From a virus (Duplodnaviria; Heunggongvirae; Uroviricota; Caudoviricetes), in IMG/VR virus record IMGVR_UViG_2870495154_000003: 60,319 nucleotides of DNA. One strand, given 5' to 3'. Positions 1,380-22,711 of the stretch are shown piece by piece. A program made the translations under genes and the position numbers. Below the pieces are notes generated by a model, which had not been told where the DNA came from, did not search any database, and saw only the letters and a program-made list of their open reading frames with translations. Within the stretch, counting starts at the first letter, position 1. The number at the start of each line of letters is the position of its first letter.

Positions 1380-1390
1380 TGTATCCCCCT

Positions 1391-1732: not shown

Positions 1733-1741
1733 TGCTCCCCC

Positions 1742-2995: not shown

Positions 2996-2999
2996 GAAT

Positions 3000-3422
3000 T
3001 TAAAACGGTATATTATCGCCGTACGGATCATCATTCCCCGACTGTTGTTTTGCCCTGTTCAGTGCGTCAGTGGCCTGCCCCTGCTGGCCTTTTTTGCCGC
3101 CCGGTCGCGCCGTTCGCGCACTGATTACACTGTCTGCGATAACCTGCCAGCCCTGCCGCGTTTCGCCGTTCTGGCCTGTCCACTGGCTTACCTGCATGTT
3201 ACCCGCCACGCTCACCAATTCGCCTTTGTGGTGTTTTGCCAGTGCGTCGGCCTGTCTGCCAAACGCCAGGACGGATAACCACATCGTCGCCGTTCCGTCA
3301 TCTGCCTGGCTGCACGGCAGGGGAACCGCCATACTCGCCATCGCCATTTGTGTCCCTTTGCTGGTGGTCTTTAACTGCGGGTCAGCCACCAGCCGCCCGT
3401 AAGCCGCTATCTGTGCTGTCAT
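3000..3422 (-). CDS. ssb: Single-stranded DNA-binding protein (140 aa)
   Basis: OB-fold-like core (WLSVLAFGRQADALAKHHKGELVSVAGNMQVSQWTGQNGETRQGWQVIADSV), Gly/Gln-rich linker and acidic C-terminal tip DDPYGDNIPF, comparable to E. coli SSB ...DFDDDIPF. ATGA overlap with the upstream ORF. Confidence 0.8.
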   Translation of the reverse strand: MTAQIAAYGRLVADPQLKTTSKGTQMAMASMAVPLPCSQADDGTATMWLSVLAFGRQADALAKHHKGELVSVAGNMQVSQWTGQNGETRQGWQVIADSVISARTARPGGKKGQQGQATDALNRAKQQSGNDDPYGDNIPF

Positions 3423-3664
3423 GCTGTCTGCTCTCCGGTTTTAACGTTGATGGTTGTCACCTGTTCCGCTTCGGCAATCTCCCGTTCTGTCAGCGTGGCA
3501 AAGTTTGCAGCTGCCGTTGTCATGAATGAGCTAATCAGTTCGGGATGTGCTTTCGCATATCCTTCCCCGGCGTTGCGGTCGATGATTTTTATCGACACCC
3601 TTAACCAGTGTTCCGTCAAATCAAGGGCGTGCGATTGTGATTTTTTTGTGTGCTTCGCTGTCAT
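3419..3664 (-). CDS. Hypothetical protein (81 aa), translationally coupled to ssb
   Basis: ORF in track; its stop overlaps the ssb start (ATGA). No recognisable motif. Confidence 0.45.
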   Translation of the reverse strand: MTAKHTKKSQSHALDLTEHWLRVSIKIIDRNAGEGYAKAHPELISSFMTTAAANFATLTEREIAEAEQVTTINVKTGEQTA

Positions 3665-3712
3665 AGGCTTTATCTCACAGCAGTAAATTAAAATTTTTGC
3701 GTTTTAACCCTT

Positions 3713-3937
3713 CACCTGTTCACCTTTTGATATTTTATCTTTTAATTCATAATGTTAAGGGGTGAACAGTTTCACAAAAACTATTCACCAACTGTTCACC
3801 ACTGTTCACCCTTGAAGCTCAATAAACAATCAAAAAGGTGAACAGTGAATAGTTTGGTGAACAGTTCATAAATAACTGTTCACCCTATAACATACTGATA
3901 CAAAAGATATTTATGACAGGGTGAACAGTGGTGAACA
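3713..3937. repeat. Iteron cluster / putative replication origin: about 9 copies of GGTGAACAG in both orientations in AT-rich DNA
   Basis: GGTGAACAG or CTGTTCACC at roughly 3716, 3762, 3793, 3803, 3838, 3859, 3877, 3919 and 3929, directly 3' of the primase-helicase gene. Recurs in every copy. Confidence 0.7.
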
Positions 3938-3951
3938 GTTATTCCATAAGT

Positions 3952-5769
3952 TTAATTTTTGCTATCGTCATTAGTGACCGATACACATGATGGCATCCAG
4001 TCTTCTGATTCCTCCGTCAGTGTCACGTTTGAACGCAAACCGTGCTTCGTTTTCCGTTTCATATACTCCCTGCCATATTCCGCCATTGCCCCCGGCATAT
4101 CTTTACCGAAGCGCGTCAGTGTTACAGGTTTACCAAACCCATGTGCCTTCATATAAGCCAGATAGGCATGATAGAGATACCTGCGCGGGCTGAATGGCAC
4201 AATTTCAGCATTACCCACTAACAGGCCATCACACATTACCGACGCCATGAGATAGCCGCAGAAGTCCACCAGCGAATCACCTTCACGCTTTATCGCGAGT
4301 GCTTCTTCTGATTTCTGCTGCTCATATAAAAGGCGTCTGGCTTCGTCCTGGTCAGCAAACCGTGTAAGCAGATGACGAATCACTACCGCCAGCTCACCTT
4401 CTATTTTTTCCGCCAGCATTGAATCGCGTTCGTTCTCCGGTACAACTTCCGAAAAATTGAATATCACCCGACGGCGCGAGATCCCCCCACTGCGGTCACT
4501 GAATGACATAGCGTTATTGTTAACCGCCAGCACTACTGCCGGGATACGCGTTGAATATGGGGCTTTATGTTTTGGGTCGATTGCCACCTTGTCACCGCCT
4601 GTAATAGCCTTAATTCCCGCCCCATCACCAGCGTAGCGGGTCATATCCGGCATGATAATCAGCGAAAAGCCAACCACTAACGCGCGTTCCCTTGCATCTT
4701 CCAGCGCCTTCATGCTCGCTGATACTGTATTAGCCTTACCCGCCAGCATGGTGCAAATCTCCGCCATCACGCTTTTACCACTTCCCCCTGGACCTGTTAC
4801 CTCAATGAATAACTGCCAGTCGTACCGGTTCGCCAGCACCATGAATAATGCAGCCAGTACGCGATCCGCCTTGCGGTCATTCTCAGCCACCGAACGGCGT
4901 AACCACTTCCAGAAATTCGGCGCATGTGTTGCCAGCGTTTCCCCCTCTGCTGGTGGGCTGAAAGGTAATTCACTGGCAATTAACAACCAGTCGTTTTTGT
5001 TATGCTCCCGAAAATTACCTGTTCTGGTATCAAATACCCCGTTACTGAATCCAATCAGGTTACGGGCTGTATTCCCCATTACAGGCAAACTTAACTTCAT
5101 GGTATCGACCGCCGATTTAATGGCGTTCTGCGAATAGCTGATCTCCGCATCAATGAAAATCTGTGCCATAGCTCGCTGTAATTCTTTATCCTGTACTGGC
5201 TCCCATACAACGCCGTTGTAATGGTGAACAGTGTCAGAGTCAGCATGAATCGCCAGTTCACCGCCATAATGTGCCAGGAGAACTTCGCCGCGTTGACTTG
5301 CTCCCATCTGGTTAAGCGCCAGTGATGAAGCGTTATCGTCTTTTACCCGCTCTTTTTTCTTTACAGGCAGTTCAACTACCTTTTTCTTTTCCGCCAGCTC
5401 TCCCCGCTCACGTTCCAGATATTCGCGCCAGTTCTCCCGTTTCTGGCTGTGCATTCCTTCAGGGTAATAATCAGCATCCCTGACACCTGCCGCTGCCAGT
5501 TTCTGCCCGATGGTATTAACAAGCCCCGGACGCAATAACCCCGCCTGGTAGAGACGCACGCGATAGCGTCCGTCCGGTACGATTTGCAGGTTGTCCAGTT
5601 CGGCAAGTTGTTGCTCTCCAAGCCAGACAGGTGGCACGTTATCGCCAGCCAGTCGCCCGTCCTGTTCCTGCCACTGCGTCGCATGTGCCCACGCATCACT
5701 ACCCGCAAAAATGATGACTTCCGTCATTTTGTCACGCGGCTGGTGTTTTAAATTTGGCGCTTTTTTCAT
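3952..5769 (-). CDS. Primase-helicase, P4-alpha / D5-type (605 aa)
   Basis: ORF 3952..5784 trimmed to the ATG at 5767..5769 (GGAGAGAG SD; ATGA overlap with upstream ORF). Walker A GPGGSGKS in the C-terminal NTPase region; overall layout typical of satellite/PICI primase-helicases. Confidence 0.85.
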   Translation of the reverse strand: MKKAPNLKHQPRDKMTEVIIFAGSDAWAHATQWQEQDGRLAGDNVPPVWLGEQQLAELDNLQIVPDGRYRVRLYQAGLLRPGLVNTIGQKLAAAGVRDADYYPEGMHSQKRENWREYLERERGELAEKKKVVELPVKKKERVKDDNASSLALNQMGASQRGEVLLAHYGGELAIHADSDTVHHYNGVVWEPVQDKELQRAMAQIFIDAEISYSQNAIKSAVDTMKLSLPVMGNTARNLIGFSNGVFDTRTGNFREHNKNDWLLIASELPFSPPAEGETLATHAPNFWKWLRRSVAENDRKADRVLAALFMVLANRYDWQLFIEVTGPGGSGKSVMAEICTMLAGKANTVSASMKALEDARERALVVGFSLIIMPDMTRYAGDGAGIKAITGGDKVAIDPKHKAPYSTRIPAVVLAVNNNAMSFSDRSGGISRRRVIFNFSEVVPENERDSMLAEKIEGELAVVIRHLLTRFADQDEARRLLYEQQKSEEALAIKREGDSLVDFCGYLMASVMCDGLLVGNAEIVPFSPRRYLYHAYLAYMKAHGFGKPVTLTRFGKDMPGAMAEYGREYMKRKTKHGLRSNVTLTEESEDWMPSCVSVTNDDSKN

Positions 5770-6059
5770 TTCTGCTCTCTCCACGCGGCAATCATGTTTT
5801 TCAGTTCCTGTAGTTTTTTATCCACACGTGACACATGGTTATTTCTGGAAAGCGGGATTTCCCGCCTGAATCTGCTAATAAAGATCTCCACGTTCAGCGA
5901 ACTATGAAATGAATAGCCATCACGAATAAAATAAACACGGTCAAACATCAGTTCTTTTACCGTTACTCTGTTACCGTTCTTATCCAGATAAATAGCGCCG
6001 GGGATAATTTTTGGGTGTGCATAACCGCTGGCAGTCAAGCCAGATAAATATGTTCTCAT
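5766..6059 (-). CDS. Hypothetical protein (97 aa), translationally coupled to primase
   Basis: ORF in track; stop overlaps the primase ATG; GGGGA SD upstream. Confidence 0.5.
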   Translation of the reverse strand: MRTYLSGLTASGYAHPKIIPGAIYLDKNGNRVTVKELMFDRVYFIRDGYSFHSSLNVEIFISRFRREIPLSRNNHVSRVDKKLQELKNMIAAWREQK

Positions 6060-6065
6060 GATTAT

Positions 6066-6386
6066 TTATCCCCGATTTGAATCAGTATTCGCTTTCTTTA
6101 TGGCATTTAATGCATCTGTGGCATTTTCAATGGTGCACCGTAACGAAATATCAAACTGCCCAAGCATTGCCAGTAACAAGCCAATATTCCCCATGTCAAT
6201 GCGCATAGCCTTTTCGTCATATTCCTCATTTTCTGACGCATGCCACATCAGGCTACCAATTGACGCAACAGCCATTGATATATTGTCAGTAGCCCCATCC
6301 GCAGCGGAATAAACCTTTTTAGCAATATCATGCTCACAGTTAAAATGCGGATTAATCAGGTACTGGTAATTTGACATATCAGGCAT
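6066..6386 (-). CDS. Hypothetical protein (106 aa, [15 protein letters not shown]...)
   Basis: C-terminal part of ORF 6066..6821; the upstream part of that ORF is Pro/Arg/Leu-rich and looks off-frame. ATG at 6384..6386 overlaps the stop of the upstream ORF (ATGCCTGA). Confidence 0.45.
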
Positions 6387-6918
6387 GGCACACCCCCTGG
6401 CGAATACGGGCGGCGAATACAGCAACACAACCGGACGGGCAGCGGTTACGCGCTTCACGTTCCGTCCAGGCGGTGACGTGGATGATTTGATGGTCTGACG
6501 CGCCAAAGATGATAAAGCGCCAGAGAAAGGCGGTTTGAGAATGTACAAGGGTAGGGATAGTAGCCATGTTGGCAGCCTCCTTTGACAGTGAAGAATTTCC
6601 ACCGCAGGAAACGCCAATTTCGCTGGCGGTGGACTGAACGGGGTTGGCGTAACCGGCGTCAAAGGGAACCGGCGCTTCCGAAGAAGCCCCCGCCCAGCCC
6701 ACCATAACTTTGATGTGAGCGAATGCGGACGATAAAAAAGACGCTGGCGCGTCATATATCGCCTTTGACATTTCCAGGACGCCAATCCCGGCACCAGATT
6801 TTGCTGGTGCGGATAAATCATAGCCCTGGCTTGCAGTGGCGATCAACTGGTTTTTTACACCCGCTTTATTCAGGTTGTGCGAGTCCCGCCCTTGCGGGTG
6901 TGTGGTATGATTTCTCAT
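6379..6918 (-). CDS. Hypothetical Ala/Gly/Ser-rich protein (179 aa; alternative 62-aa start at 6567 with AGGAGG SD)
   Basis: 3' part of the 429-aa ORF 6379..7668; in-frame ATG at 6916..6918 with GAGG SD, just beyond the divergent operator region. Confidence 0.3.
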
Positions 6919-7015
6919 AGCGACCTCGATACTATCGTTATCGTTGGTGGTTAGAAGCCCCGTTACTGCTCCAACAGTGCGGGGTTTCGTCGTTTCTGCA
7001 CCTTGCATCAACAAG

Positions 7016-7067
7016 GTGTTGAACACCAATGTAAACTCAGGTGTTGAACACGTCAAGTGTTGAACAC
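7016..7067. promoter_or_regulatory. Operator-like array: three copies of the 11-bp palindrome GTGTTGAACAC
   Basis: Sites at 7016..7026, 7041..7051 and 7057..7067, in the ~200-bp divergent intergenic region between minus-strand ORF start 6918 and plus-strand ORF start 7118. Recurs in every copy. Confidence 0.6.
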
Positions 7068-7117
7068 TTGTTTTTTTTCCTGCATACTGCATTTGTTTTT
7101 TGTGAGGGGTACACAAC

Positions 7118-7297
7118 ATGGCGACAAAAGCAGTAAACGCAAAATCACAAACAGTTGCGGCAAGGGTTCCGCATGAAGTTATGAACAATGTTGAGGCGGT
7201 AAAAATGCCTGGTGAAAGTACAGGGCAATTTGTAACAGCAGCATTAAAGCGAGAAGTTGAATACCGCCAGCGACGCAAGGCTAAAGAGCAAGAATAA
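7118..7297 (+). CDS. Small ribbon-helix-helix-like DNA-binding protein (59 aa), putative regulator
   Basis: Not in the ORF track (below 60 aa). ATG at 7118 with GAGGGG SD 7 nt upstream; translation [59 protein letters not shown]; directly downstream of the palindromic operators. Confidence 0.55.
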
Positions 7298-7354
7298 TCA
7301 CTATCAGCGCTGTGGTGTGAGGTACTCCGGCGCATTGCTTTACAGGTCGGCACT

Positions 7355-7564
7355 ATGAGCAAAAAATACCTATCCACTGAAGAGATTTTCGCAGAACAAC
7401 GAAGATTGCTTTTACAGAGCATTGTTGCACGCCAGAAAGAAAAGGCACACGCTAAACAAATGCCACCAAATACAGAACCAGCGCCTACAAAATTTGCGCT
7501 TGATGAGTTTCTCAATAAACAGCCCCGGGTAATGAAAGCTAACAGGAACCGCCCACCAGGCTGA
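7355..7564 (+). CDS. Hypothetical protein (69 aa)
   Basis: ORF in track, co-oriented with the RHH gene and followed by a plus-strand terminator. Confidence 0.4.
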
Positions 7565-7628
7565 TCACATTGCCCACCAGCCAGCAAATCGCTATGATGG
7601 CTGGGCTTATGTTTAGTGTATTCCCACT

Positions 7629-7660
7629 GGCGACCTCTGATCCGGGTCGCCTTTGTTTTA
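7629..7660 (+). terminator. Rho-independent terminator (GGCGACC-tctgatccg-GGTCGCC followed by TTTGTTTTATG)
   Basis: Read directly from the sequence; sits between the convergent plus-strand ORFs and alpA. Confidence 0.6.
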
Positions 7661-7678
7661 TGTGTCATATGCCCCCCT

Positions 7679-7888
7679 TTACGCTGCCTTGCCTGAATTA
7701 ATGCGATCCCGGCTTTTAACCCATTCCATAACCTCGGACAGCAGCCAACCTACAGAACGACCGCCCAGATTACGGCGTGACGGGAAATTCCCTTTTTTCT
7801 CCAGTTCATAGCGTGTAGTGCGACACACTCCAGTTAACTTACGACATTCATCCTCACGGATTACGCGATCTTCATTTATTTCACGCAT
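7679..7888 (-). CDS. alpA: AlpA-family prophage regulatory protein (69 aa)
   Basis: Motif [43 protein letters not shown] is typical of AlpA-family HTH regulators; lies downstream of int. Confidence 0.8.
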
Positions 7889-8307
7889 ACAAAAACCTAC
7901 ATAAAAAATTACGTATATAAACTTTTCTCTTAGCTGTAGATATATGAGATCGGATATTACTTAGATTCTTTTTTCACCTCTTAAATTAAAAACACAACCT
8001 TGCTAAAGGCTTTGTTCGCTAAGGTTCGTAGAAGCTCGTTAGTGTTTAAAATCGTGTCACGAGTTTTTAAGCGATGCAACAAAAAATGTCGTTATTTGGC
8101 ATTACGCTTGAATTATCTCATTAAAAACAAATAGATAAACCATCAAGTGTTGGAACAATCAAGAAACAGAGAATAAAAGTTCAGAAGAAGACATTCCAAT
8201 TTTTTGATGGTTGACATATATAAAGCGAAGATATTTGCAGATATTTTCCGATATTCTACGATTTATTCACGGCTGTAATCTCTTAAAGAAAAAACAGCCG
8301 TAATTTG

Positions 8308-9546
8308 TCAAGAATTTTGGGTGTAAATTCGCGGGGTCATAACAACGATTTTTTCATCATTGTTCTGGAGAAGCTCGAGACGGTCTACCCATAGATTAAG
8401 AGCATCACGTTTTGCATCAAGATAACGGGAGTGGTTATAGACTCGTTGCATCCCCGGCATCTGGTGGGCGGTAAGCTGCTCGACAATATGCGGATCCACG
8501 CCTAAATCGTTCAGCATGGTTGTAAATGTGTGCCGGATGTCATGCAACGACCAGGGGGCTTGATTAATGCGTCTGTGTGCCGTTCTTCCGTACTCTGCTA
8601 CGGATGATTGCCCTTTCAGTTCTCCAAGCAATAAGCCCGTGTGCCTGTTCTTCTCCACCAGCTTCATGACAAACGGCAAGATCGCTTCCGGTATTGGCCT
8701 GAATATTGCTACCTTCGTTTTGCTGTGTTCTTTCGGCACAGTCCAGAGCATTTCTTTAAAATCCCATTCCTGAACCTCGGAGCGTCTTAGCTCAGTGGTA
8801 CGGCATCCAAAGACAATCAGAAGGCGAATTAAGGCGCTGTAGTACGGCGGGAAAATTTTTTCATCCAGTGCGCGGAGTAGCTCGCCAAGCTCCTTGTTTG
8901 TTAGCACTCGCTCGCTTATTTCTGCTTTTTTTCCCACATCACCTACGACCATATCATCAAGAACGTTACTGACGGCGTAGCGACGTTTACGGCAGTACTT
9001 AAGCGCCTGCTTGCATACCTGCAACAAAAAGCCGGCTGATACCGGATTACGCTTAGCAAGCTGGTCAAAACAGGCCAGCCAGTGGCGTAGCTCGCATTTA
9101 TCCAGCGGCATAGCACCAATCTGGCTGATTATGTGCTTATTGATACGGCTTTTCAGTGATTCGTGGTCAGTGCGCTTTTCCTTCGCATACGACTCAAGCC
9201 AGTAAGTGAGCGCGTCCTTAACCGTCACAGGGGCTAACGCTTCCTGCACTGTGTGATTAAGCTCATGGCGTGGATTTTTCCCCTCCGCCAGCCAGGCGCG
9301 ACACTGTGCCGCTTTTTCCCTGGCTGCTTTCAGGCTCAGATCGGGATAGTTGCCCAGTCTCAGGCGTTCCGGTGATACCTGCCTGCCAGTTCCGGCCCTG
9401 TAAGTGAAATACCAGGTTAACAGGCCGCTGGTGGAATGTCTTACGCTAAGATTGCCACCGTCATTAAAAAAGGCGTTTTTTGTGGTTGGTGATCCGCTTA
9501 ATTTTCGTAAAAGAGTGTCGCTAAGTCTATGAATTGCGCTGCTCAT
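8308..9546 (-). CDS. int: Tyrosine recombinase / integrase (412 aa)
   Basis: C-terminal catalytic region with R...HxxR...Y signature (RTAHRR..., HDIRHTFTTML..., MQRVYNHSRYL); P4-like length and layout. Confidence 0.9.
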   Translation of the reverse strand: MSSAIHRLSDTLLRKLSGSPTTKNAFFNDGGNLSVRHSTSGLLTWYFTYRAGTGRQVSPERLRLGNYPDLSLKAAREKAAQCRAWLAEGKNPRHELNHTVQEALAPVTVKDALTYWLESYAKEKRTDHESLKSRINKHIISQIGAMPLDKCELRHWLACFDQLAKRNPVSAGFLLQVCKQALKYCRKRRYAVSNVLDDMVVGDVGKKAEISERVLTNKELGELLRALDEKIFPPYYSALIRLLIVFGCRTTELRRSEVQEWDFKEMLWTVPKEHSKTKVAIFRPIPEAILPFVMKLVEKNRHTGLLLGELKGQSSVAEYGRTAHRRINQAPWSLHDIRHTFTTMLNDLGVDPHIVEQLTAHQMPGMQRVYNHSRYLDAKRDALNLWVDRLELLQNNDEKIVVMTPRIYTQNS

Positions 9547-9573
9547 GTTTCGCGTTTCCGGTCATCAAAATTA

Positions 9574-9645
9574 ACTACACCATTGACTACACCGTGCATC
9601 GTACAAGGGCAAACCGTGACGAACAATATCGAACAACCGCGAACA
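9574..9645. promoter_or_regulatory. Direct repeats upstream of int: ACTACACC x2 (9574, 9586) and CGAACAA x3 at 10-bp phasing (9619, 9629, 9639)
   Basis: Read directly from the sequence, 30-100 bp upstream of the int start codon. Confidence 0.4.
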
Positions 9646-9987
9646 AAGATCAACACGCTTTAATCATTATCATTTTCCGGCTATCCGTCATGAAGCTGGT
9701 GGATGATCTGCGTGGTGATTTCCACCATTCAGAGCAGGGGCGGTCATCATGACCATGCCATAACAAAAACCCCATATTCGTGGTTTTTCTGTGTCGGGGC
9801 TATTCTGCTGTTGCCGTGCTGGTGGATATTCTCCGGTATGCGGCTCCCCATATCGGCATCAGGCCCACCAGCGTGAAGCGTTTTTCATTTTTCGCGGGTA
9901 TAAAAAATCGATGGGGCTGGCAGTCCTGAAGACGTCAGGGTACAGAGATTTGACCCGCCCCTCCCTGTGCATGAGCACAATAAGTAA

Positions 9988-10011
9988 CCGAAGGCGGAAT
10001 TCCGCCCTCGG
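9988..10011. other. Perfect 14-bp palindrome GGCGGAATTCCGCC within an imperfect 24-bp inverted repeat
   Basis: Read directly from the sequence, in the non-coding region between the 124-aa ORF and int. Confidence 0.5.
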
Positions 10012-10073
10012 TACTTACATATGAGAAACGATATTTCTTCCACCGATACCCTTTATTTGGGTATTGCGAGTAA

Positions 10074-10152
10074 GCCCCAAAATCTGGGTGTTACTCTTAC
10101 TACCCAAACTACGGGTAGTTTCCGTAGTTTCATGGTCGAGTTGCAAATCTGC
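10074..10152. other. Cluster of three consecutive stem-loops (9-bp stem AAACTACGG / CCGTAGTTT; 6-bp GTTGCA / TGCAAC; 7-bp AACGCAA / TTGCGTT)
   Basis: Read directly from the sequence; 50-130 nt beyond the stop of the minus-strand ORF 10203..10577. Confidence 0.45.
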
Positions 10153-10202
10153 AACTCACCCACCAGCCAACGCAATTTTGCGTTATCGGGAATATCAGCA
10201 AG

Positions 10203-10577
10203 TTACCGCCGCAGTCGTTCCGGCTTCTTCCACTGGTAAGTATTTTTCGCGCTCTCCCTCCGTTGTTGAGAACGGCGACGGTATGCCAGCAACTCAAGGA
10301 CTCTGGTTCGTATGTTGCGCATATCCACGCCGTTAAGCTCAATACCATCACGGCGCATCACCTCAGCAACAACACGCGCGTAATTTTCGGCTATCACGCT
10401 GTCCGGCTGCGTGGCCTCCTGTTCGCCAGCCTGCTGGCTGATTCCGGTAATACTGCGGATTATCCCGAGCGCTTCGGTCTCGGTCATGGTCATGGCCTCC
10501 ATAGTGATGGCGGGTCCTCCTTGTGGGGTGCCCTGCCACGGGGCGGGAGCATCGCGGAAAAAGGCTAGTTTTTGCAT
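10203..10577 (-). CDS. Hypothetical protein (124 aa; probable true start at 10485..10487 giving 94 aa)
   Basis: ORF in track, last gene downstream of TerS on the minus strand. GGAGG SD is best spaced (8 nt) for the third in-frame ATG (MTETEALGIIR...). Confidence 0.4.
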   Translation of the reverse strand: MQKLAFFRDAPAPWQGTPQGGPAITMEAMTMTETEALGIIRSITGISQQAGEQEATQPDSVIAENYARVVAEVMRRDGIELNGVDMRNIRTRVLELLAYRRRSQQRRESAKNTYQWKKPERLRR

Positions 10578-10738
10578 TTTTATTCGTCATCACCACCAAT
10601 GCAATATATTGATATGACTTGATGTTTTATTTTTCGGTGTCGATTTCGATTGTTTTTTGTTCATCACTGACGCATAACGCCCACCAGCGCAACGCTGAAA
10701 GCCAGTCAGTAAACTGGCTTAGGTCATTGTGCACTACG

Positions 10739-11281
10739 TTACTTGTCTTTATCCGACTGAAACTTATCAGGCACATTTCCGGTAGTTTCCATCAGATAAT
10801 CGGACAGCATTCGCGGGATGTTTTCATCAAGTTTTGTGCATGCGTTACAGGCTCTGACAACTTCTTTTTTCAGGCCATCCAGCATGGCGGGGGTCATCTG
10901 TGGGAAGCTCCTTTGCATAGTAAGCGGCAGGCTGCCCATGATTGAAGAAATCTGACTCGCCAGTTTTGAAAGCGCATATATACAAAATTCCGTACTAATC
11001 ACATCGCCGCGTTCGCGCTCGTTTTTAAGCTCCTGCGCCTCCGCCTGCGCTGTCAGCAATCTGATCCTGACTCGCAAAAGCTCATCATTATCAATCTCGC
11101 CTTTGTCGTCTGTAATCTGGTTAATTGCATTGCTAACCCGATTGTCTATTACGCTGGCAACATCATAAAACGCCTCGCGGCCTTTACGTTCAACGGGAGT
11201 CACTCCCCACTTGTCGAACGCTGTCGCACTTACACGGCAGCTTTGCGCCATGTTTTTTTTGTTCATCAGGTGCGATTTCAT
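10739..11281 (-). CDS. Terminase small subunit, Nu1-like (copy B)
   Basis: Identical translation to 252..794. Confidence 0.8.
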   Translation of the reverse strand: MKSHLMNKKNMAQSCRVSATAFDKWGVTPVERKGREAFYDVASVIDNRVSNAINQITDDKGEIDNDELLRVRIRLLTAQAEAQELKNERERGDVISTEFCIYALSKLASQISSIMGSLPLTMQRSFPQMTPAMLDGLKKEVVRACNACTKLDENIPRMLSDYLMETTGNVPDKFQSDKDK

Positions 11282-11482
11282 CAATATCCCCACTTAAGTA
11301 ATGTTTCAGGTTGGTGTATTGGCTTTATCTTTTCCTTTTTATTCATAGAGATAGAGCGAACAACAAAACCACCACCAGCACCCGAAAAAGGCTCATAAAT
11401 AGCGAAAACCCGCGAGGTCGCCGCCCCGTAACCTACCGGATCGCCGGAAAGGACCCGCCAGCCAGAACGGGCCCTAATTTCA

Positions 11483-11866
11483 TCAACCAATCAACTTATA
11501 GCGACCATCCCGTGCATTGCGACGTACACGCTCAATCTTGAGGCATAGCGCCGCATCTGGCTTTTTTGGGACAGGTACGCGGCAATATTCAGAAGCTCGA
11601 GGAATATTGTTTATCCAGTCGATCACTTCACTTAAATACCAGGCCTTACGCCCTTTCGTAACCTGTACGCGTTCGGGGAACTCTCCGCGAGCCTCAAGGT
11701 TTAGCAATGTGCGACGGCTAAGGGTAGTAAGTTCCATCACCTGATTCATATCAACAAGGCGTTCACTTAAACGCATTTTGTCAGCAATAGCCTTTAATTC
11801 CTCTACTGCTGGATCCGGATACATCATTTCGGCAATTGGCTTAAGGTCATTGTAATGATTCTGCAT
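11483..11866 (-). CDS. AlpA/Xis-like HTH protein (copy B)
   Basis: Identical translation to 996..1379. Confidence 0.6.
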   Translation of the reverse strand: MQNHYNDLKPIAEMMYPDPAVEELKAIADKMRLSERLVDMNQVMELTTLSRRTLLNLEARGEFPERVQVTKGRKAWYLSEVIDWINNIPRASEYCRVPVPKKPDAALCLKIERVRRNARDGRYKLIG

Positions 11867-11877
11867 TGTATCCCCCT

Positions 11878-12217
11878 TTACACACGAGCCAGCGGCTGAA
11901 CAGAAATACCTGAGCCAACAAACGCGGCAACCTTTGCCGACAGTTCTTTTACAGACTCAGGCCAGTTCAGAGCATCAACATTTAAAACACCTGTCTTATA
12001 AACCTGTGCCTGTGTTTTTTTCGCTGTGTCGATTTGTACAGCGGAAACATAAACCGCTTTACCTACGCTCGAACCATCCCATACCACCAGTGCACCTGTT
12101 GCATCTTCCTGCATCAGTGGCGTAAATGCAGGAATTACCCTTTATTAGCTGAAAATATCCCAGCGTAGTCACCAGTGCTTCAGTGCCAGCCATGAGTTCA
12201 GTGTAATGAGTAGCCAT
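11878..12217 (-). pseudogene. gpD-like decoration gene, frameshifted in copy B
   Basis: Two 1-bp deletions in C-runs (near 12139 and 12160) relative to other copies; the track shows only a 78-aa ORF 11878..12114. Confidence 0.6.
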
Positions 12218-12225
12218 TGCTCCCC

Positions 12226-13271
12226 TTAGCCAATGCGAACGGTAACAAAACGATTGATGCGGGCCGGTATTGGCTGTGGTGCTGAATGTGTCTGCACATA
12301 TTCAATAGCCGGATCACCAGGCACAATATAGTTTTTCGGTGCAAGTTCGGCTTTAGTCAGCCCCATTCGGATTAGCTCCGGATCCTGAATACCGCCATAG
12401 GCGACAATCCCTGAAGAGCCGTATTGCCAAGCACCATCAAATCAGGATCAAGGAAATGTTTTTCTGTTCCGTCCTCGTCGGTATAACGCCCGCTGTAAAC
12501 AACAATCGCAACATCGCCCATATACCCTTTAAAACTCACCGAATCACCAAGGTCTTTAAGGGCCGTTTCCAGTTCGGAATTAGAACCACGACGGGTATCC
12601 AAAGCCTCTTTTATCGCTCTGAATGAACGGTATTTCTTCCATACATTACCACCCATAATGATGATATTAGTGACGCCCTCACTAAATTCTGCGTAGCTCT
12701 CAATATCATCATTTGGATCAAAAGTTTCTTTATCCTTACCTGACCACTCAGTACCGCCAGACTGAGTGATGATATTTTGTGGTTTTATATTCCAGTCCAG
12801 CTCATAACGTTCAATACCATCGCCCTCAATGATATTTTTCCCCGTTGTGATTGCCTGAACAGCAAGCCATTCAATACGTGCACGAATAGCTTTAGCCTGA
12901 TTTACAATCGCCTGTTTAACTTTAATATTACGCGCCCCAAAAGCATTGTATTGCTCAGGTGACACACCAGCAGGGCGCACAGCTAACTTATTTGGATCAA
13001 TGCTGCTTTTCGGCTTCATATAACCTGGACGAATTGTTTTTGATTCGTATCCCTCATCTCGTGAAACTTTACTGCCCACCATAGGAGAGCAAAACGCCGC
13101 GATCGGGATATTTGGATCGTCGATCGTATCAAGAATAATGTCTCTCGATTCAAACATTACCGAGCGAGTGAAAAACAAACTGGTAAACAACGCATTTAAT
13201 TTTTTTTGCACATCTTCAGCATTAGCCACCTGCACAAGCTGTGTAGGCGAATATAAATCAACCATACTCAT
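12226..13271 (-). pseudogene. gpE-like major capsid gene, frameshifted near its 3' end in copy B
   Basis: 1-bp deletion in a C-run near 12419; ORF 12372..13352 has an altered C-terminus (...ALQGLSPMAVFRIRS) versus other copies. Confidence 0.6.
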
Positions 13272-13482
13272 CCTCTTTACATTCATTACAAATAATTGTG
13301 AATATATTCTATTACCGATGTCTGCTATGCGAATACATGCAACCAAGTGCAATGTTGTATAAAATATGCCGTAACAACTTCAGTGCTGATAATTCGTGTT
13401 AATGTATTTACTTCCTTTGGTCGGGATTTATGTAGCATGCCGGAAAATCTATTTTTTTCCGGCATCTTTTTGTTTGCAGAAT

Positions 13483-13905
13483 TTAAAACGGTATATTATC
13501 GCCGTACGGATCATCATTCCCCGACTGTTGTTTTGCCCTGTTCAGTGCGTCAGTGGCCTGCCCCTGCTGGCCTTTTTTGCCGCCCGGTCGCGCCGTTCGC
13601 GCACTGATTACACTGTCTGCGATAACCTGCCAGCCCTGCCGCGTTTCGCCGTTCTGGCCTGTCCACTGGCTTACCTGCATGTTACCCGCCACGCTCACCA
13701 ATTCGCCTTTGTGGTGTTTTGCCAGTGCGTCGGCCTGTCTGCCAAACGCCAGGACGGATAACCACATCGTCGCCGTTCCGTCATCTGCCTGGCTGCACGG
13801 CAGGGGAACCGCCATACTCGCCATCGCCATTTGTGTCCCTTTGCTGGTGGTCTTTAACTGCGGGTCAGCCACCAGCCGCCCGTAAGCCGCTATCTGTGCT
13901 GTCAT
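13483..13905 (-). CDS. ssb: Single-stranded DNA-binding protein (copy B)
   Basis: Identical translation to 3000..3422. Confidence 0.8.
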   Translation of the reverse strand: MTAQIAAYGRLVADPQLKTTSKGTQMAMASMAVPLPCSQADDGTATMWLSVLAFGRQADALAKHHKGELVSVAGNMQVSQWTGQNGETRQGWQVIADSVISARTARPGGKKGQQGQATDALNRAKQQSGNDDPYGDNIPF

Positions 13906-14147
13906 GCTGTCTGCTCTCCGGTTTTAACGTTGATGGTTGTCACCTGTTCCGCTTCGGCAATCTCCCGTTCTGTCAGCGTGGCAAAGTTTGCAGCTGCCGT
14001 TGTCATGAATGAGCTAATCAGTTCGGGATGTGCTTTCGCATATCCTTCCCCGGCGTTGCGGTCGATGATTTTTATCGACACCCTTAACCAGTGTTCCGTC
14101 AAATCAAGGGCGTGCGATTGTGATTTTTTTGTGTGCTTCGCTGTCAT
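13902..14147 (-). CDS. Hypothetical protein 81 aa (copy B)
   Basis: Identical translation to 3419..3664. Confidence 0.45.
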   Translation of the reverse strand: MTAKHTKKSQSHALDLTEHWLRVSIKIIDRNAGEGYAKAHPELISSFMTTAAANFATLTEREIAEAEQVTTINVKTGEQTA

Positions 14148-14434
14148 AGGCTTTATCTCACAGCAGTAAATTAAAATTTTTGCGTTTTAACCCTTCACCT
14201 GTTCACCTTTTGATATTTTATCTTTTAATTCATAATGTTAAGGGGTGAACAGTTTCACAAAAACTATTCACCAACTGTTCACCACTGTTCACCCTTGAAG
14301 CTCAATAAACAATCAAAAAGGTGAACAGTGAATAGTTTGGTGAACAGTTCATAAATAACTGTTCACCCTATAACATACTGATACAAAAGATATTTATGAC
14401 AGGGTGAACAGTGGTGAACAGTTATTCCATAAGT

Positions 14435-16252
14435 TTAATTTTTGCTATCGTCATTAGTGACCGATACACATGATGGCATCCAGTCTTCTGATTCCTCCGT
14501 CAGTGTCACGTTTGAACGCAAACCGTGCTTCGTTTTCCGTTTCATATACTCCCTGCCATATTCCGCCATTGCCCCCGGCATATCTTTACCGAAGCGCGTC
14601 AGTGTTACAGGTTTACCAAACCCATGTGCCTTCATATAAGCCAGATAGGCATGATAGAGATACCTGCGCGGGCTGAATGGCACAATTTCAGCATTACCCA
14701 CTAACAGGCCATCACACATTACCGACGCCATGAGATAGCCGCAGAAGTCCACCAGCGAATCACCTTCACGCTTTATCGCGAGTGCTTCTTCTGATTTCTG
14801 CTGCTCATATAAAAGGCGTCTGGCTTCGTCCTGGTCAGCAAACCGTGTAAGCAGATGACGAATCACTACCGCCAGCTCACCTTCTATTTTTTCCGCCAGC
14901 ATTGAATCGCGTTCGTTCTCCGGTACAACTTCCGAAAAATTGAATATCACCCGACGGCGCGAGATCCCCCCACTGCGGTCACTGAATGACATAGCGTTAT
15001 TGTTAACCGCCAGCACTACTGCCGGGATACGCGTTGAATATGGGGCTTTATGTTTTGGGTCGATTGCCACCTTGTCACCGCCTGTAATAGCCTTAATTCC
15101 CGCCCCATCACCAGCGTAGCGGGTCATATCCGGCATGATAATCAGCGAAAAGCCAACCACTAACGCGCGTTCCCTTGCATCTTCCAGCGCCTTCATGCTC
15201 GCTGATACTGTATTAGCCTTACCCGCCAGCATGGTGCAAATCTCCGCCATCACGCTTTTACCACTTCCCCCTGGACCTGTTACCTCAATGAATAACTGCC
15301 AGTCGTACCGGTTCGCCAGCACCATGAATAATGCAGCCAGTACGCGATCCGCCTTGCGGTCATTCTCAGCCACCGAACGGCGTAACCACTTCCAGAAATT
15401 CGGCGCATGTGTTGCCAGCGTTTCCCCCTCTGCTGGTGGGCTGAAAGGTAATTCACTGGCAATTAACAACCAGTCGTTTTTGTTATGCTCCCGAAAATTA
15501 CCTGTTCTGGTATCAAATACCCCGTTACTGAATCCAATCAGGTTACGGGCTGTATTCCCCATTACAGGCAAACTTAACTTCATGGTATCGACCGCCGATT
15601 TAATGGCGTTCTGCGAATAGCTGATCTCCGCATCAATGAAAATCTGTGCCATAGCTCGCTGTAATTCTTTATCCTGTACTGGCTCCCATACAACGCCGTT
15701 GTAATGGTGAACAGTGTCAGAGTCAGCATGAATCGCCAGTTCACCGCCATAATGTGCCAGGAGAACTTCGCCGCGTTGACTTGCTCCCATCTGGTTAAGC
15801 GCCAGTGATGAAGCGTTATCGTCTTTTACCCGCTCTTTTTTCTTTACAGGCAGTTCAACTACCTTTTTCTTTTCCGCCAGCTCTCCCCGCTCACGTTCCA
15901 GATATTCGCGCCAGTTCTCCCGTTTCTGGCTGTGCATTCCTTCAGGGTAATAATCAGCATCCCTGACACCTGCCGCTGCCAGTTTCTGCCCGATGGTATT
16001 AACAAGCCCCGGACGCAATAACCCCGCCTGGTAGAGACGCACGCGATAGCGTCCGTCCGGTACGATTTGCAGGTTGTCCAGTTCGGCAAGTTGTTGCTCT
16101 CCAAGCCAGACAGGTGGCACGTTATCGCCAGCCAGTCGCCCGTCCTGTTCCTGCCACTGCGTCGCATGTGCCCACGCATCACTACCCGCAAAAATGATGA
16201 CTTCCGTCATTTTGTCACGCGGCTGGTGTTTTAAATTTGGCGCTTTTTTCAT
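14435..16252 (-). CDS. Primase-helicase (copy B)
   Basis: Identical translation to 3952..5769. Confidence 0.85.
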   Translation of the reverse strand: MKKAPNLKHQPRDKMTEVIIFAGSDAWAHATQWQEQDGRLAGDNVPPVWLGEQQLAELDNLQIVPDGRYRVRLYQAGLLRPGLVNTIGQKLAAAGVRDADYYPEGMHSQKRENWREYLERERGELAEKKKVVELPVKKKERVKDDNASSLALNQMGASQRGEVLLAHYGGELAIHADSDTVHHYNGVVWEPVQDKELQRAMAQIFIDAEISYSQNAIKSAVDTMKLSLPVMGNTARNLIGFSNGVFDTRTGNFREHNKNDWLLIASELPFSPPAEGETLATHAPNFWKWLRRSVAENDRKADRVLAALFMVLANRYDWQLFIEVTGPGGSGKSVMAEICTMLAGKANTVSASMKALEDARERALVVGFSLIIMPDMTRYAGDGAGIKAITGGDKVAIDPKHKAPYSTRIPAVVLAVNNNAMSFSDRSGGISRRRVIFNFSEVVPENERDSMLAEKIEGELAVVIRHLLTRFADQDEARRLLYEQQKSEEALAIKREGDSLVDFCGYLMASVMCDGLLVGNAEIVPFSPRRYLYHAYLAYMKAHGFGKPVTLTRFGKDMPGAMAEYGREYMKRKTKHGLRSNVTLTEESEDWMPSCVSVTNDDSKN

Positions 16253-16542
16253 TTCTGCTCTCTCCACGCGGCAATCATGTTTTTCAGTTCCTGTAGTTTT
16301 TTATCCACACGTGACACATGGTTATTTCTGGAAAGCGGGATTTCCCGCCTGAATCTGCTAATAAAGATCTCCACGTTCAGCGAACTATGAAATGAATAGC
16401 CATCACGAATAAAATAAACACGGTCAAACATCAGTTCTTTTACCGTTACTCTGTTACCGTTCTTATCCAGATAAATAGCGCCGGGGATAATTTTTGGGTG
16501 TGCATAACCGCTGGCAGTCAAGCCAGATAAATATGTTCTCAT
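16249..16542 (-). CDS. Hypothetical protein 97 aa (copy B)
   Basis: Identical translation to 5766..6059. Confidence 0.5.
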   Translation of the reverse strand: MRTYLSGLTASGYAHPKIIPGAIYLDKNGNRVTVKELMFDRVYFIRDGYSFHSSLNVEIFISRFRREIPLSRNNHVSRVDKKLQELKNMIAAWREQK

Positions 16543-16548
16543 GATTAT

Positions 16549-16869
16549 TTATCCCCGATTTGAATCAGTATTCGCTTTCTTTATGGCATTTAATGCATCT
16601 GTGGCATTTTCAATGGTGCACCGTAACGAAATATCAAACTGCCCAAGCATTGCCAGTAACAAGCCAATATTCCCCATGTCAATGCGCATAGCCTTTTCGT
16701 CATATTCCTCATTTTCTGACGCATGCCACATCAGGCTACCAATTGACGCAACAGCCATTGATATATTGTCAGTAGCCCCATCCGCAGCGGAATAAACCTT
16801 TTTAGCAATATCATGCTCACAGTTAAAATGCGGATTAATCAGGTACTGGTAATTTGACATATCAGGCAT
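16549..16869 (-). CDS. Hypothetical protein 106 aa (copy B)
   Basis: Identical to 6066..6386. Confidence 0.45.
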
Positions 16870-17401
16870 GGCACACCCCCTGGCGAATACGGGCGGCGAA
16901 TACAGCAACACAACCGGACGGGCAGCGGTTACGCGCTTCACGTTCCGTCCAGGCGGTGACGTGGATGATTTGATGGTCTGACGCGCCAAAGATGATAAAG
17001 CGCCAGAGAAAGGCGGTTTGAGAATGTACAAGGGTAGGGATAGTAGCCATGTTGGCAGCCTCCTTTGACAGTGAAGAATTTCCACCGCAGGAAACGCCAA
17101 TTTCGCTGGCGGTGGACTGAACGGGGTTGGCGTAACCGGCGTCAAAGGGAACCGGCGCTTCCGAAGAAGCCCCCGCCCAGCCCACCATAACTTTGATGTG
17201 AGCGAATGCGGACGATAAAAAAGACGCTGGCGCGTCATATATCGCCTTTGACATTTCCAGGACGCCAATCCCGGCACCAGATTTTGCTGGTGCGGATAAA
17301 TCATAGCCCTGGCTTGCAGTGGCGATCAACTGGTTTTTTACACCCGCTTTATTCAGGTTGTGCGAGTCCCGCCCTTGCGGGTGTGTGGTATGATTTCTCA
17401 T
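16862..17401 (-). CDS. Hypothetical Ala/Gly/Ser-rich protein (copy B)
   Basis: Identical to 6379..6918. Confidence 0.3.
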
Positions 17402-17600
17402 AGCGACCTCGATACTATCGTTATCGTTGGTGGTTAGAAGCCCCGTTACTGCTCCAACAGTGCGGGGTTTCGTCGTTTCTGCACCTTGCATCAACAAGGT
17501 GTTGAACACCAATGTAAACTCAGGTGTTGAACACGTCAAGTGTTGAACACTTGTTTTTTTTCCTGCATACTGCATTTGTTTTTTGTGAGGGGTACACAAC

Positions 17601-17780
17601 ATGGCGACAAAAGCAGTAAACGCAAAATCACAAACAGTTGCGGCAAGGGTTCCGCATGAAGTTATGAACAATGTTGAGGCGGTAAAAATGCCTGGTGAAA
17701 GTACAGGGCAATTTGTAACAGCAGCATTAAAGCGAGAAGTTGAATACCGCCAGCGACGCAAGGCTAAAGAGCAAGAATAA
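17601..17780 (+). CDS. RHH-like small regulator (copy B)
   Basis: Identical to 7118..7297. Confidence 0.55.
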
Positions 17781-17837
17781 TCACTATCAGCGCTGTGGTG
17801 TGAGGTACTCCGGCGCATTGCTTTACAGGTCGGCACT

Positions 17838-18047
17838 ATGAGCAAAAAATACCTATCCACTGAAGAGATTTTCGCAGAACAACGAAGATTGCTTTTACAG
17901 AGCATTGTTGCACGCCAGAAAGAAAAGGCACACGCTAAACAAATGCCACCAAATACAGAACCAGCGCCTACAAAATTTGCGCTTGATGAGTTTCTCAATA
18001 AACAGCCCCGGGTAATGAAAGCTAACAGGAACCGCCCACCAGGCTGA
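17838..18047 (+). CDS. Hypothetical protein 69 aa (copy B)
   Basis: Identical to 7355..7564. Confidence 0.4.
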
Positions 18048-18161
18048 TCACATTGCCCACCAGCCAGCAAATCGCTATGATGGCTGGGCTTATGTTTAGT
18101 GTATTCCCACTGGCGACCTCTGATCCGGGTCGCCTTTGTTTTATGTGTCATATGCCCCCCT

Positions 18162-18371
18162 TTACGCTGCCTTGCCTGAATTAATGCGATCCCGGCTTTT
18201 AACCCATTCCATAACCTCGGACAGCAGCCAACCTACAGAACGACCGCCCAGATTACGGCGTGACGGGAAATTCCCTTTTTTCTCCAGTTCATAGCGTGTA
18301 GTGCGACACACTCCAGTTAACTTACGACATTCATCCTCACGGATTACGCGATCTTCATTTATTTCACGCAT
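18162..18371 (-). CDS. alpA: AlpA-family regulator (copy B)
   Basis: Identical to 7679..7888. Confidence 0.8.
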
Positions 18372-18790
18372 ACAAAAACCTACATAAAAAATTACGTATA
18401 TAAACTTTTCTCTTAGCTGTAGATATATGAGATCGGATATTACTTAGATTCTTTTTTCACCTCTTAAATTAAAAACACAACCTTGCTAAAGGCTTTGTTC
18501 GCTAAGGTTCGTAGAAGCTCGTTAGTGTTTAAAATCGTGTCACGAGTTTTTAAGCGATGCAACAAAAAATGTCGTTATTTGGCATTACGCTTGAATTATC
18601 TCATTAAAAACAAATAGATAAACCATCAAGTGTTGGAACAATCAAGAAACAGAGAATAAAAGTTCAGAAGAAGACATTCCAATTTTTTGATGGTTGACAT
18701 ATATAAAGCGAAGATATTTGCAGATATTTTCCGATATTCTACGATTTATTCACGGCTGTAATCTCTTAAAGAAAAAACAGCCGTAATTTG

Positions 18791-20029
18791 TCAAGAATTT
18801 TGGGTGTAAATTCGCGGGGTCATAACAACGATTTTTTCATCATTGTTCTGGAGAAGCTCGAGACGGTCTACCCATAGATTAAGAGCATCACGTTTTGCAT
18901 CAAGATAACGGGAGTGGTTATAGACTCGTTGCATCCCCGGCATCTGGTGGGCGGTAAGCTGCTCGACAATATGCGGATCCACGCCTAAATCGTTCAGCAT
19001 GGTTGTAAATGTGTGCCGGATGTCATGCAACGACCAGGGGGCTTGATTAATGCGTCTGTGTGCCGTTCTTCCGTACTCTGCTACGGATGATTGCCCTTTC
19101 AGTTCTCCAAGCAATAAGCCCGTGTGCCTGTTCTTCTCCACCAGCTTCATGACAAACGGCAAGATCGCTTCCGGTATTGGCCTGAATATTGCTACCTTCG
19201 TTTTGCTGTGTTCTTTCGGCACAGTCCAGAGCATTTCTTTAAAATCCCATTCCTGAACCTCGGAGCGTCTTAGCTCAGTGGTACGGCATCCAAAGACAAT
19301 CAGAAGGCGAATTAAGGCGCTGTAGTACGGCGGGAAAATTTTTTCATCCAGTGCGCGGAGTAGCTCGCCAAGCTCCTTGTTTGTTAGCACTCGCTCGCTT
19401 ATTTCTGCTTTTTTTCCCACATCACCTACGACCATATCATCAAGAACGTTACTGACGGCGTAGCGACGTTTACGGCAGTACTTAAGCGCCTGCTTGCATA
19501 CCTGCAACAAAAAGCCGGCTGATACCGGATTACGCTTAGCAAGCTGGTCAAAACAGGCCAGCCAGTGGCGTAGCTCGCATTTATCCAGCGGCATAGCACC
19601 AATCTGGCTGATTATGTGCTTATTGATACGGCTTTTCAGTGATTCGTGGTCAGTGCGCTTTTCCTTCGCATACGACTCAAGCCAGTAAGTGAGCGCGTCC
19701 TTAACCGTCACAGGGGCTAACGCTTCCTGCACTGTGTGATTAAGCTCATGGCGTGGATTTTTCCCCTCCGCCAGCCAGGCGCGACACTGTGCCGCTTTTT
19801 CCCTGGCTGCTTTCAGGCTCAGATCGGGATAGTTGCCCAGTCTCAGGCGTTCCGGTGATACCTGCCTGCCAGTTCCGGCCCTGTAAGTGAAATACCAGGT
19901 TAACAGGCCGCTGGTGGAATGTCTTACGCTAAGATTGCCACCGTCATTAAAAAAGGCGTTTTTTGTGGTTGGTGATCCGCTTAATTTTCGTAAAAGAGTG
20001 TCGCTAAGTCTATGAATTGCGCTGCTCAT
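18791..20029 (-). CDS. int: Tyrosine integrase (copy B)
   Basis: Identical to 8308..9546. Confidence 0.9.
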   Translation of the reverse strand: MSSAIHRLSDTLLRKLSGSPTTKNAFFNDGGNLSVRHSTSGLLTWYFTYRAGTGRQVSPERLRLGNYPDLSLKAAREKAAQCRAWLAEGKNPRHELNHTVQEALAPVTVKDALTYWLESYAKEKRTDHESLKSRINKHIISQIGAMPLDKCELRHWLACFDQLAKRNPVSAGFLLQVCKQALKYCRKRRYAVSNVLDDMVVGDVGKKAEISERVLTNKELGELLRALDEKIFPPYYSALIRLLIVFGCRTTELRRSEVQEWDFKEMLWTVPKEHSKTKVAIFRPIPEAILPFVMKLVEKNRHTGLLLGELKGQSSVAEYGRTAHRRINQAPWSLHDIRHTFTTMLNDLGVDPHIVEQLTAHQMPGMQRVYNHSRYLDAKRDALNLWVDRLELLQNNDEKIVVMTPRIYTQNS

Positions 20030-20685
20030 GTTTCGCGTTTCCGGTCATCAAAATTAACTACACCATTGACTACACCGTGCATCGTACAAGGGCAAACCGT
20101 GACGAACAATATCGAACAACCGCGAACAAAGATCAACACGCTTTAATCATTATCATTTTCCGGCTATCCGTCATGAAGCTGGTGGATGATCTGCGTGGTG
20201 ATTTCCACCATTCAGAGCAGGGGCGGTCATCATGACCATGCCATAACAAAAACCCCATATTCGTGGTTTTTCTGTGTCGGGGCTATTCTGCTGTTGCCGT
20301 GCTGGTGGATATTCTCCGGTATGCGGCTCCCCATATCGGCATCAGGCCCACCAGCGTGAAGCGTTTTTCATTTTTCGCGGGTATAAAAAATCGATGGGGC
20401 TGGCAGTCCTGAAGACGTCAGGGTACAGAGATTTGACCCGCCCCTCCCTGTGCATGAGCACAATAAGTAACCGAAGGCGGAATTCCGCCCTCGGTACTTA
20501 CATATGAGAAACGATATTTCTTCCACCGATACCCTTTATTTGGGTATTGCGAGTAAGCCCCAAAATCTGGGTGTTACTCTTACTACCCAAACTACGGGTA
20601 GTTTCCGTAGTTTCATGGTCGAGTTGCAAATCTGCAACTCACCCACCAGCCAACGCAATTTTGCGTTATCGGGAATATCAGCAAG

Positions 20686-21060
20686 TTACCGCCGCAGTCG
20701 TTCCGGCTTCTTCCACTGGTAAGTATTTTTCGCGCTCTCCCTCCGTTGTTGAGAACGGCGACGGTATGCCAGCAACTCAAGGACTCTGGTTCGTATGTTG
20801 CGCATATCCACGCCGTTAAGCTCAATACCATCACGGCGCATCACCTCAGCAACAACACGCGCGTAATTTTCGGCTATCACGCTGTCCGGCTGCGTGGCCT
20901 CCTGTTCGCCAGCCTGCTGGCTGATTCCGGTAATACTGCGGATTATCCCGAGCGCTTCGGTCTCGGTCATGGTCATGGCCTCCATAGTGATGGCGGGTCC
21001 TCCTTGTGGGGTGCCCTGCCACGGGGCGGGAGCATCGCGGAAAAAGGCTAGTTTTTGCAT
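20686..21060 (-). CDS. Hypothetical protein 124 aa (copy B/C junction)
   Basis: Identical to 10203..10577. Confidence 0.4.
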   Translation of the reverse strand: MQKLAFFRDAPAPWQGTPQGGPAITMEAMTMTETEALGIIRSITGISQQAGEQEATQPDSVIAENYARVVAEVMRRDGIELNGVDMRNIRTRVLELLAYRRRSQQRRESAKNTYQWKKPERLRR

Positions 21061-21221
21061 TTTTATTCGTCATCACCACCAATGCAATATATTGATATGA
21101 CTTGATGTTTTATTTTTCGGTGTCGATTTCGATTGTTTTTTGTTCATCACTGACGCATAACGCCCACCAGCGCAACGCTGAAAGCCAGTCAGTAAACTGG
21201 CTTAGGTCATTGTGCACTACG

Positions 21222-21764
21222 TTACTTGTCTTTATCCGACTGAAACTTATCAGGCACATTTCCGGTAGTTTCCATCAGATAATCGGACAGCATTCGCGGG
21301 ATGTTTTCATCAAGTTTTGTGCATGCGTTACAGGCTCTGACAACTTCTTTTTTCAGGCCATCCAGCATGGCGGGGGTCATCTGTGGGAAGCTCCTTTGCA
21401 TAGTAAGCGGCAGGCTGCCCATGATTGAAGAAATCTGACTCGCCAGTTTTGAAAGCGCATATATACAAAATTCCGTACTAATCACATCGCCGCGTTCGCG
21501 CTCGTTTTTAAGCTCCTGCGCCTCCGCCTGCGCTGTCAGCAATCTGATCCTGACTCGCAAAAGCTCATCATTATCAATCTCGCCTTTGTCGTCTGTAATC
21601 TGGTTAATTGCATTGCTAACCCGATTGTCTATTACGCTGGCAACATCATAAAACGCCTCGCGGCCTTTACGTTCAACGGGAGTCACTCCCCACTTGTCGA
21701 ACGCTGTCGCACTTACACGGCAGCTTTGCGCCATGTTTTTTTTGTTCATCAGGTGCGATTTCAT
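21222..21764 (-). CDS. Terminase small subunit, Nu1-like (copy C)
   Basis: Identical to 252..794. Confidence 0.8.
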   Translation of the reverse strand: MKSHLMNKKNMAQSCRVSATAFDKWGVTPVERKGREAFYDVASVIDNRVSNAINQITDDKGEIDNDELLRVRIRLLTAQAEAQELKNERERGDVISTEFCIYALSKLASQISSIMGSLPLTMQRSFPQMTPAMLDGLKKEVVRACNACTKLDENIPRMLSDYLMETTGNVPDKFQSDKDK

Positions 21765-21965
21765 CAATATCCCCACTTAAGTAATGTTTCAGGTTGGTGT
21801 ATTGGCTTTATCTTTTCCTTTTTATTCATAGAGATAGAGCGAACAACAAAACCACCACCAGCACCCGAAAAAGGCTCATAAATAGCGAAAACCCGCGAGG
21901 TCGCCGCCCCGTAACCTACCGGATCGCCGGAAAGGACCCGCCAGCCAGAACGGGCCCTAATTTCA

Positions 21966-22349: not shown

Positions 22350-22360
22350 TGTATCCCCCT

Positions 22361-22702: not shown

Positions 22703-22711
22703 TGCTCCCCC

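Follow-up and report, generated by a model that had tools for sequence, protein, structure and literature searches.

The 60,319-base stretch of DNA analysed here (the window) consists of a 10,487-bp unit repeated head to tail 5.75 times, with spacings of 10,483 to 10,488 bp between corresponding positions. The six copies, five complete and one partial, were aligned with MAFFT and their boundaries and lengths are listed in Table 1; the length of 10,483 bp that an initial annotation of this DNA had given for copy B was recovered in that alignment. One end of the unit carries a tyrosine integrase of 412 aa (phrog_1) together with an AlpA protein (PF05930), and the att core is 18 bp long. The Icd/ash region comes next in the order, followed by a zone with DUF4222, a D5-type primase-helicase, an iteron origin and SSB. 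The primase has 610 aa and D5_N, DUF5906 and Pox_D5 matches, and at least 11 iterons lie immediately 3′ of it. The last part of the unit is a late zone that encodes an E-like and a D-like protein, a second AlpA-like protein, a homologue of the Nu1-type small terminase and a phrog_1561 protein.

The E-like and D-like genes had been named as such in the initial annotation, and the names are borne out by matches of their products to PF03864 and PF02924, respectively. The stop codon of the former and the start codon of the latter are separated by a 9-nt spacer, TAAGGGGGAGCAATG, which is the Shine-Dalgarno sequence of the D-like gene. Together with the Nu1-like gene, these are the only helper-type late genes in the unit, which does not hold a full virion gene set. 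Neither the ORFs of the unit nor the RefSeq genes annotated in an identical island include a portal, protease or connector gene, so the satellite is not a capsid-forming PICI (cf-PICI). Only 0.14 exact matches to the cosN dodecamer would be expected by chance. Given the cos-to-cos spacing of 10.5 kb, a lambda-sized head would take about four units (42 kb). In the Icd/ash region, a minus-strand ORF of 429 aa (27349-28638) spans the C4 and isrK RNAs; RefSeq places a partial ash pseudogene there, and the ORF is probably not a real protein.

Position 1 of the window lies a single base beyond the start codon of a 94-aa CDS, and the alpA start codon has its first base at position 60319. Both ends of the window fall at gene boundaries and not at cosN, which makes it likely that a longer record was trimmed to give the window; the real copy number may be higher than that seen here. 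A packaged cos-to-cos molecule was also considered, and was rejected because the ends do not lie at cosN and, if the window was cut out, would be uninformative in any case.

Table 1. Positions in the window of the repeat copies, of selected features of the unit and of the six run-length differences between copies.
Feature	Position	Strand	Remarks
Copy A	1-10487		10,487 bp
Copy B	10488-20970		10,483 bp
Copy C	20971-31457		10,487 bp
Copy D	31458-41944		10,487 bp
Copy E	41945-52431		10,487 bp
Copy F	52432-60319		partial, 7,888 bp
E-like major capsid gene, intact	22712-23752	minus	346 aa; PF03864 Phage_cap_E, E = 3.8e-41; phrog_29; lambda gpE family
D-like head decoration gene, intact	22361-22702	minus	113 aa; PF02924 HDPD; phrog_49
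E-like capsid gene, copy B	12372-13265	minus	as read, early stop at 12372; 297 aa
D-like gene, copy B	11878-12217	minus	as read, broken into ORFs of 52 aa and 78 aa
Predicted replication origin, copy C	24676-24914		at least 11 copies of 10-nt iteron GGTGAACAGT/ACTGTTCACC, in both orientations
Lambda-type cosN dodecamer GGGCGGCGACCT	11415-11426; 21898-21909	minus	exact; once per unit; upstream of Nu1-like gene
attP core ACGAACAATATCGAACAA	20102-20119; 30589-30606		18 bp; in every unit; attR-left arm joined to attL-right arm
C4 antisense RNA	27592-27679	minus	Rfam 82 bits; with isrK, P4-type immunity RNA pair in Icd/ash region
isrK RNA	27704-27780	minus	Rfam 75 bits
C3 run, copy B	12138-12140		C4 in the five other copies; -1 in D-like gene, G-run on coding minus strand
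C3 run, copy B	12159-12161		C4 elsewhere; -1 in D-like gene, near codon 20
C4 run, copy B	12222-12225		C5 elsewhere; -1 in Shine-Dalgarno spacer between E stop and D start; coding unchanged
C3 run, copy B	12409-12411		C4 elsewhere; -1, ~61 codons before end of E-like capsid gene
A6 run, copy D	35233-35238		A5 elsewhere; between inverted iterons GGTGAACAGT; intergenic, 3′ of primase gene
C5 run, copy D	39130-39134		C6 elsewhere; intergenic, 1 nt past alpA stop
Shortened-run alleles, examples			...GGAATTACCCTTTATT..., ...AATATCCCAGCG..., ...TTGCTCCCCTTAGCC..., ...CAATCCCTGAAG...

E. coli CREC-532 (NZ_CP024830, 2648838-2659342) has an integrated counterpart of the unit between its clpS and cspD genes, and the same island is listed at 100.0% identity in many ST167-type genomes. 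Over 10,505 bp, the CREC-532 island and the unit differ by three mismatches, namely one SNP by cosN and two att-repeat bases. The SNP, which is the sole true one between the two, is at window position 21914, 5 nt from cosN, with A here and G in CREC-532. The unit boundary joins the attR-left and attL-right arms over the 18-bp core, and so the array represents the excised, circularised attP form of this island. An intact attP junction was absent from the complete E. coli genomes and the phage and plasmid collections searched, and no exact match to it was obtained among the viral, genome or metagenome contigs searched.

The unit belongs, by its sequence, to a described family, that of E. coli cos-type PICI or helper-embedded-type satellites, and represents the excised, attP-joined form. 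Gram-negative PICIs (GN-PICIs) and helper-embedded satellites (HES) share a plan of four zones (Tommasini, Mageeney & Williams, 2022, bioRxiv 10.1101/2022.07.18.500453), and the unit resembles them in its four ordered zones, C4/isrK immunity RNAs, D5-type primase, iteron ori and lambda cosN. It differs in integrating between clpS and cspD and not at fis or hpt or within a late gene of a prophage. The arrangement of cos and the Nu1-like gene recalls the Rpp-type cos PICIs of the EcCICFT073 type (Fillol-Salom, 2019, PMC6739421).

Several natural relatives (loci L002-L005, L007, L010 and L011) encode an identical 346-aa capsid protein, and in these the satellite sits inside the portal gene of a lambdoid prophage, splitting PF05136 in two. 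Such portal-gene insertion is the helper-embedded configuration of Tommasini et al. (2022). A lambdoid prophage hosting one of the relatives has its own major capsid and D-like proteins, to which those of the satellite are only 41% and 38% identical, respectively. At a further locus (L008, 9033-14413) only the late zone is present between two portal fragments, comprising the E-like capsid, HDPD, AlpA-like, Nu1-like and a 93-aa protein; the locus, which lacks both integrase and primase, has the look of a helper-embedded satellite of which a remnant was left stranded.

The tandem arrangement also has a precedent. Long reads of DNA from virions have revealed molecules of 33-66 kb that consist purely of head-to-tail repeats, with units of 5-13 kb that carry an integrase and a primase (Beaulaurier et al., 2020, PMC7111524). 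The array described here, which fits 5.75 units of 10.5 kb into 60.3 kb, is similar to these concatemers, although marine bacteria were the hosts there and E. coli is the host here, and although the window ends at gene boundaries rather than at cos. Both the satellite and its concatemeric state are therefore of described kinds.

Between the copies there are exactly six variable alignment columns, every one a change of ±1 in a run of 4-6 nt (affected tracts of 4, 4, 5, 4, 5 and 6 nt). Five are deletions and one is an insertion, and not a single substitution separates the copies in 60,319 bases, in agreement with the initial annotation, which had described everything outside the altered runs as identical. 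Its positions for three of the copy-B deletions (near 12139, 12160 and 12225) proved right; the fourth, which it placed near 12419, is present too, but 8-10 nt away, at 12409-12411. Both changes in copy D, an additional A and a missing C, were likewise confirmed in the alignment, and the A-run does belong to the origin iterons, GGTGAACAGT being repeated at least 11 times. A comparison of run lengths across all copies showed the differences to be real in the sequence and each confined to one copy.

Taken as read, copy B has suffered in both genes of its capsid module. Two deletions near codons 20 and 27 split the D-like gene, the third takes one G from the Shine-Dalgarno run TAAGGGGGAGCAATG and the fourth brings about the early stop in the E-like gene. 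On the minus strand, the shortened C-run of copy D forms a G-run that resembles a Shine-Dalgarno sequence for the ORF that follows. A database search for the frameshifted copy-B capsid protein found no such protein on record.

The natural copies of the element give a consistent picture of what these runs look like elsewhere. At all six sites the CREC-532 island agrees in run length with the majority of the copies, and 10 further loci keep the majority lengths as well; the four copy-B sites read G4/G5/G4/G4 in each of 11 natural loci. Alleles were further sought with a 341-bp copy-B segment, at a threshold of at least 99% identity, in 394 complete E. coli genomes carrying the segment, not even one of which had the copy-B deletions. 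None of the matches reached 99%; the best, at 98.8%, corresponds to exactly four gaps, which means that no copy-B deletion is present in nature, even singly, as far as these genomes represent it. The majority version of the same 341 bp gave 210 matches of at least 99%, many of them at 100%. The way in which relatives diverge from the unit is also different, since L006 has 113 mismatches and 2 gap openings and L010 has 63 and 3, with natural relatives accumulating about 20-55 substitutions per indel, compared with zero substitutions and six indels between the copies of the array.

The distribution of the six differences is far from random. All six differences lie in homopolymers of 4 nt or more, although such runs account for just 8.9% of the bases (P about 5e-7). 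The four in copy B fall within about 272 bp, and the clustering, which the initial annotation had singled out, is statistically real: with five events placed at random among 222 C-run sites, the probability of finding four within 275 bp is about 2e-6. Copy B has lost a base from four of the five C-runs of 4 nt or more located between unit positions 1640 and 1935, implying a local failure of ~80% per run. There is also a preference for C-runs (five of six events, P = 0.0013), while the T7, T8 and A6 runs, the longest that the unit has, are unaffected. This pattern is not one of more errors in longer runs, and it is unexplained except by a base-specific calling bias. All five events in G:C runs are in C-runs on the plus strand; a strand bias was nevertheless rejected as not significant (P = 0.17), given that the unit has 222 C-runs and 96 G-runs. 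Two other candidate sources were discarded. A methylation-motif artefact was rejected on inspection of the six contexts, which contain neither Dcm CCWGG nor Dam GATC, and gene conversion or recombination with helper D and E genes was rejected as the source of the cluster, as the homologues are only 38-41% identical and copy B is without substitutions.

We consider it very probable, from the sequence pattern set out above, that all six differences are residual homopolymer-length errors in a consensus derived from long reads. The overall rate of 6/60,319, about 1e-4 or ~1 per 10 kb, equals Q40, and polished long-read assemblies usually retain errors at about Q40. Reads could not be placed uniquely in a region repeated so perfectly, and polishing with short reads would be ineffective there, while the true sequence of all copies would be the 10,487-bp majority version. 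The cluster in copy B would then mark a stretch of consensus of ~270 bp that rested on few or poor reads, in which C-runs were under-called. Here we infer both the platform that was used and a loss of read support at this stretch. For the latter, the argument is that the cluster needs a failure of ~80% per run, a level easily reached where a consensus is built on a handful of bad long reads, which points to locally failing read support rather than to biology. Moreover, each event occurs in one copy only, so the errors would be stochastic and not systematic in their context, and stochastic, copy-specific errors in turn require a low effective coverage.

Errors that remain in long-read assemblies are mostly in homopolymer length, and they survive in repeats, as short reads cannot be assigned a position there (Wick & Holt, Polypolish, PMC8812927); a perfect six-fold tandem repeat is an extreme case of this situation. 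The differences resemble residual ONT or PacBio consensus errors in being confined to ±1 homopolymer changes, in their bias towards deletion and in their frequency. As is the case for such errors in repeats, they generate spurious frameshifts and apparent pseudogenes that are contradicted by independent references. They are unlike typical long-read consensus errors in that each affects one copy, that short C-runs are hit in preference to longer T- and A-runs and that four of them are clustered.

The best of the alternatives is that the differences are genuine mutations, with copy B pseudogenised by four independent -1 slippages in its capsid module and copy D carrying two further changes. The differences are, after all, truly in the deposited sequence. 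The element exists in an excised, attP-joined form for which multimerisation is expected, and in a multicopy array the neighbours would complement a defective copy, so that selection would not purge it. We nonetheless regard this as improbable. It calls for four independent slippages in 272 bp, in four of the five local C-runs and with zero substitutions in 60 kb, and the clustering probability of about 2e-6 applies precisely under such independence. The natural spectrum in the family is dominated by substitutions and the alleles are absent from the 394 genomes. Differences of 1e-4 per base between sister copies of one template are, furthermore, orders of magnitude above the error of in-vivo replication.

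Less probable still, and in our view very unlikely, is a real patch of error-prone synthesis on a single molecule, laid down by a Pol IV/DinB-like polymerase during replication of an SOS-induced satellite, with the contig derived from one concatemeric molecule. This would account for the observation that all copy-B events are -1 changes in G:C runs within ~270 bp, as Pol IV/DinB makes -1 frameshifts in G:C runs, the span resembles the processivity of clamp-bound Pol IV, and satellites of such a type are induced along with SOS-inducible lambdoid helpers. Were it true, the patch in copy B would be the single-molecule footprint of a translesion polymerase in a rolling-circle satellite concatemer. 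However, four of the five local runs (~80%) are hit, whereas frameshift rates of Pol IV are ~1e-4 to 1e-3 per site, and we know of no replication-slippage process that reaches ~80% failure per run. The copy-D events are isolated, one of them being an insertion of A. The presence of only six errors in the contig also implies a consensus of many reads, in which a lesion on one molecule would be outvoted.

Slipped-strand phase variation, in which the C/G runs would be contingency tracts turning expression of the capsid and decoration genes on and off, is the least credible of the three: the differences do resemble contingency changes in that ±1 shifts in homopolymers alter frames or RBS spacing (three of the six frameshift the D-like and E-like genes and two lie in Shine-Dalgarno-type G-runs), but the mononucleotide contingency tracts that are known mostly measure at least 7-8 nt, against only 4-6 nt here, no length polymorphism exists at the 11 natural loci or in the 394 genomes, and several tracts are changed together in one copy, where a switch would have no need of four simultaneous changes and the two -1 deletions in the D-like gene leave its frame unrestored. 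The shortness of the tracts and the absence of the alleles from the population eliminate this explanation. The preference of the initial annotation for sequencing error over phase variation is thus supported, by a spectrum of ±1 changes only, by natural loci that keep the majority lengths and by the lack of copy-B deletions in any of the 394 genomes.

If, as residual consensus error would have it, every copy truly has the majority sequence, the disrupted capsid and decoration genes would be artefacts of annotation. The disruption claimed for copy B by the initial annotation accordingly stands on paper, where the D-like gene is split and the E-like gene truncated, and would fall as biology. Annotation of copy B at face value would produce a falsely pseudogenised capsid module, and with it stories of phase variation or decay in this satellite. 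Before genes are called, the concatemer should instead be reduced to the 10,487-bp majority unit or corrected against it.
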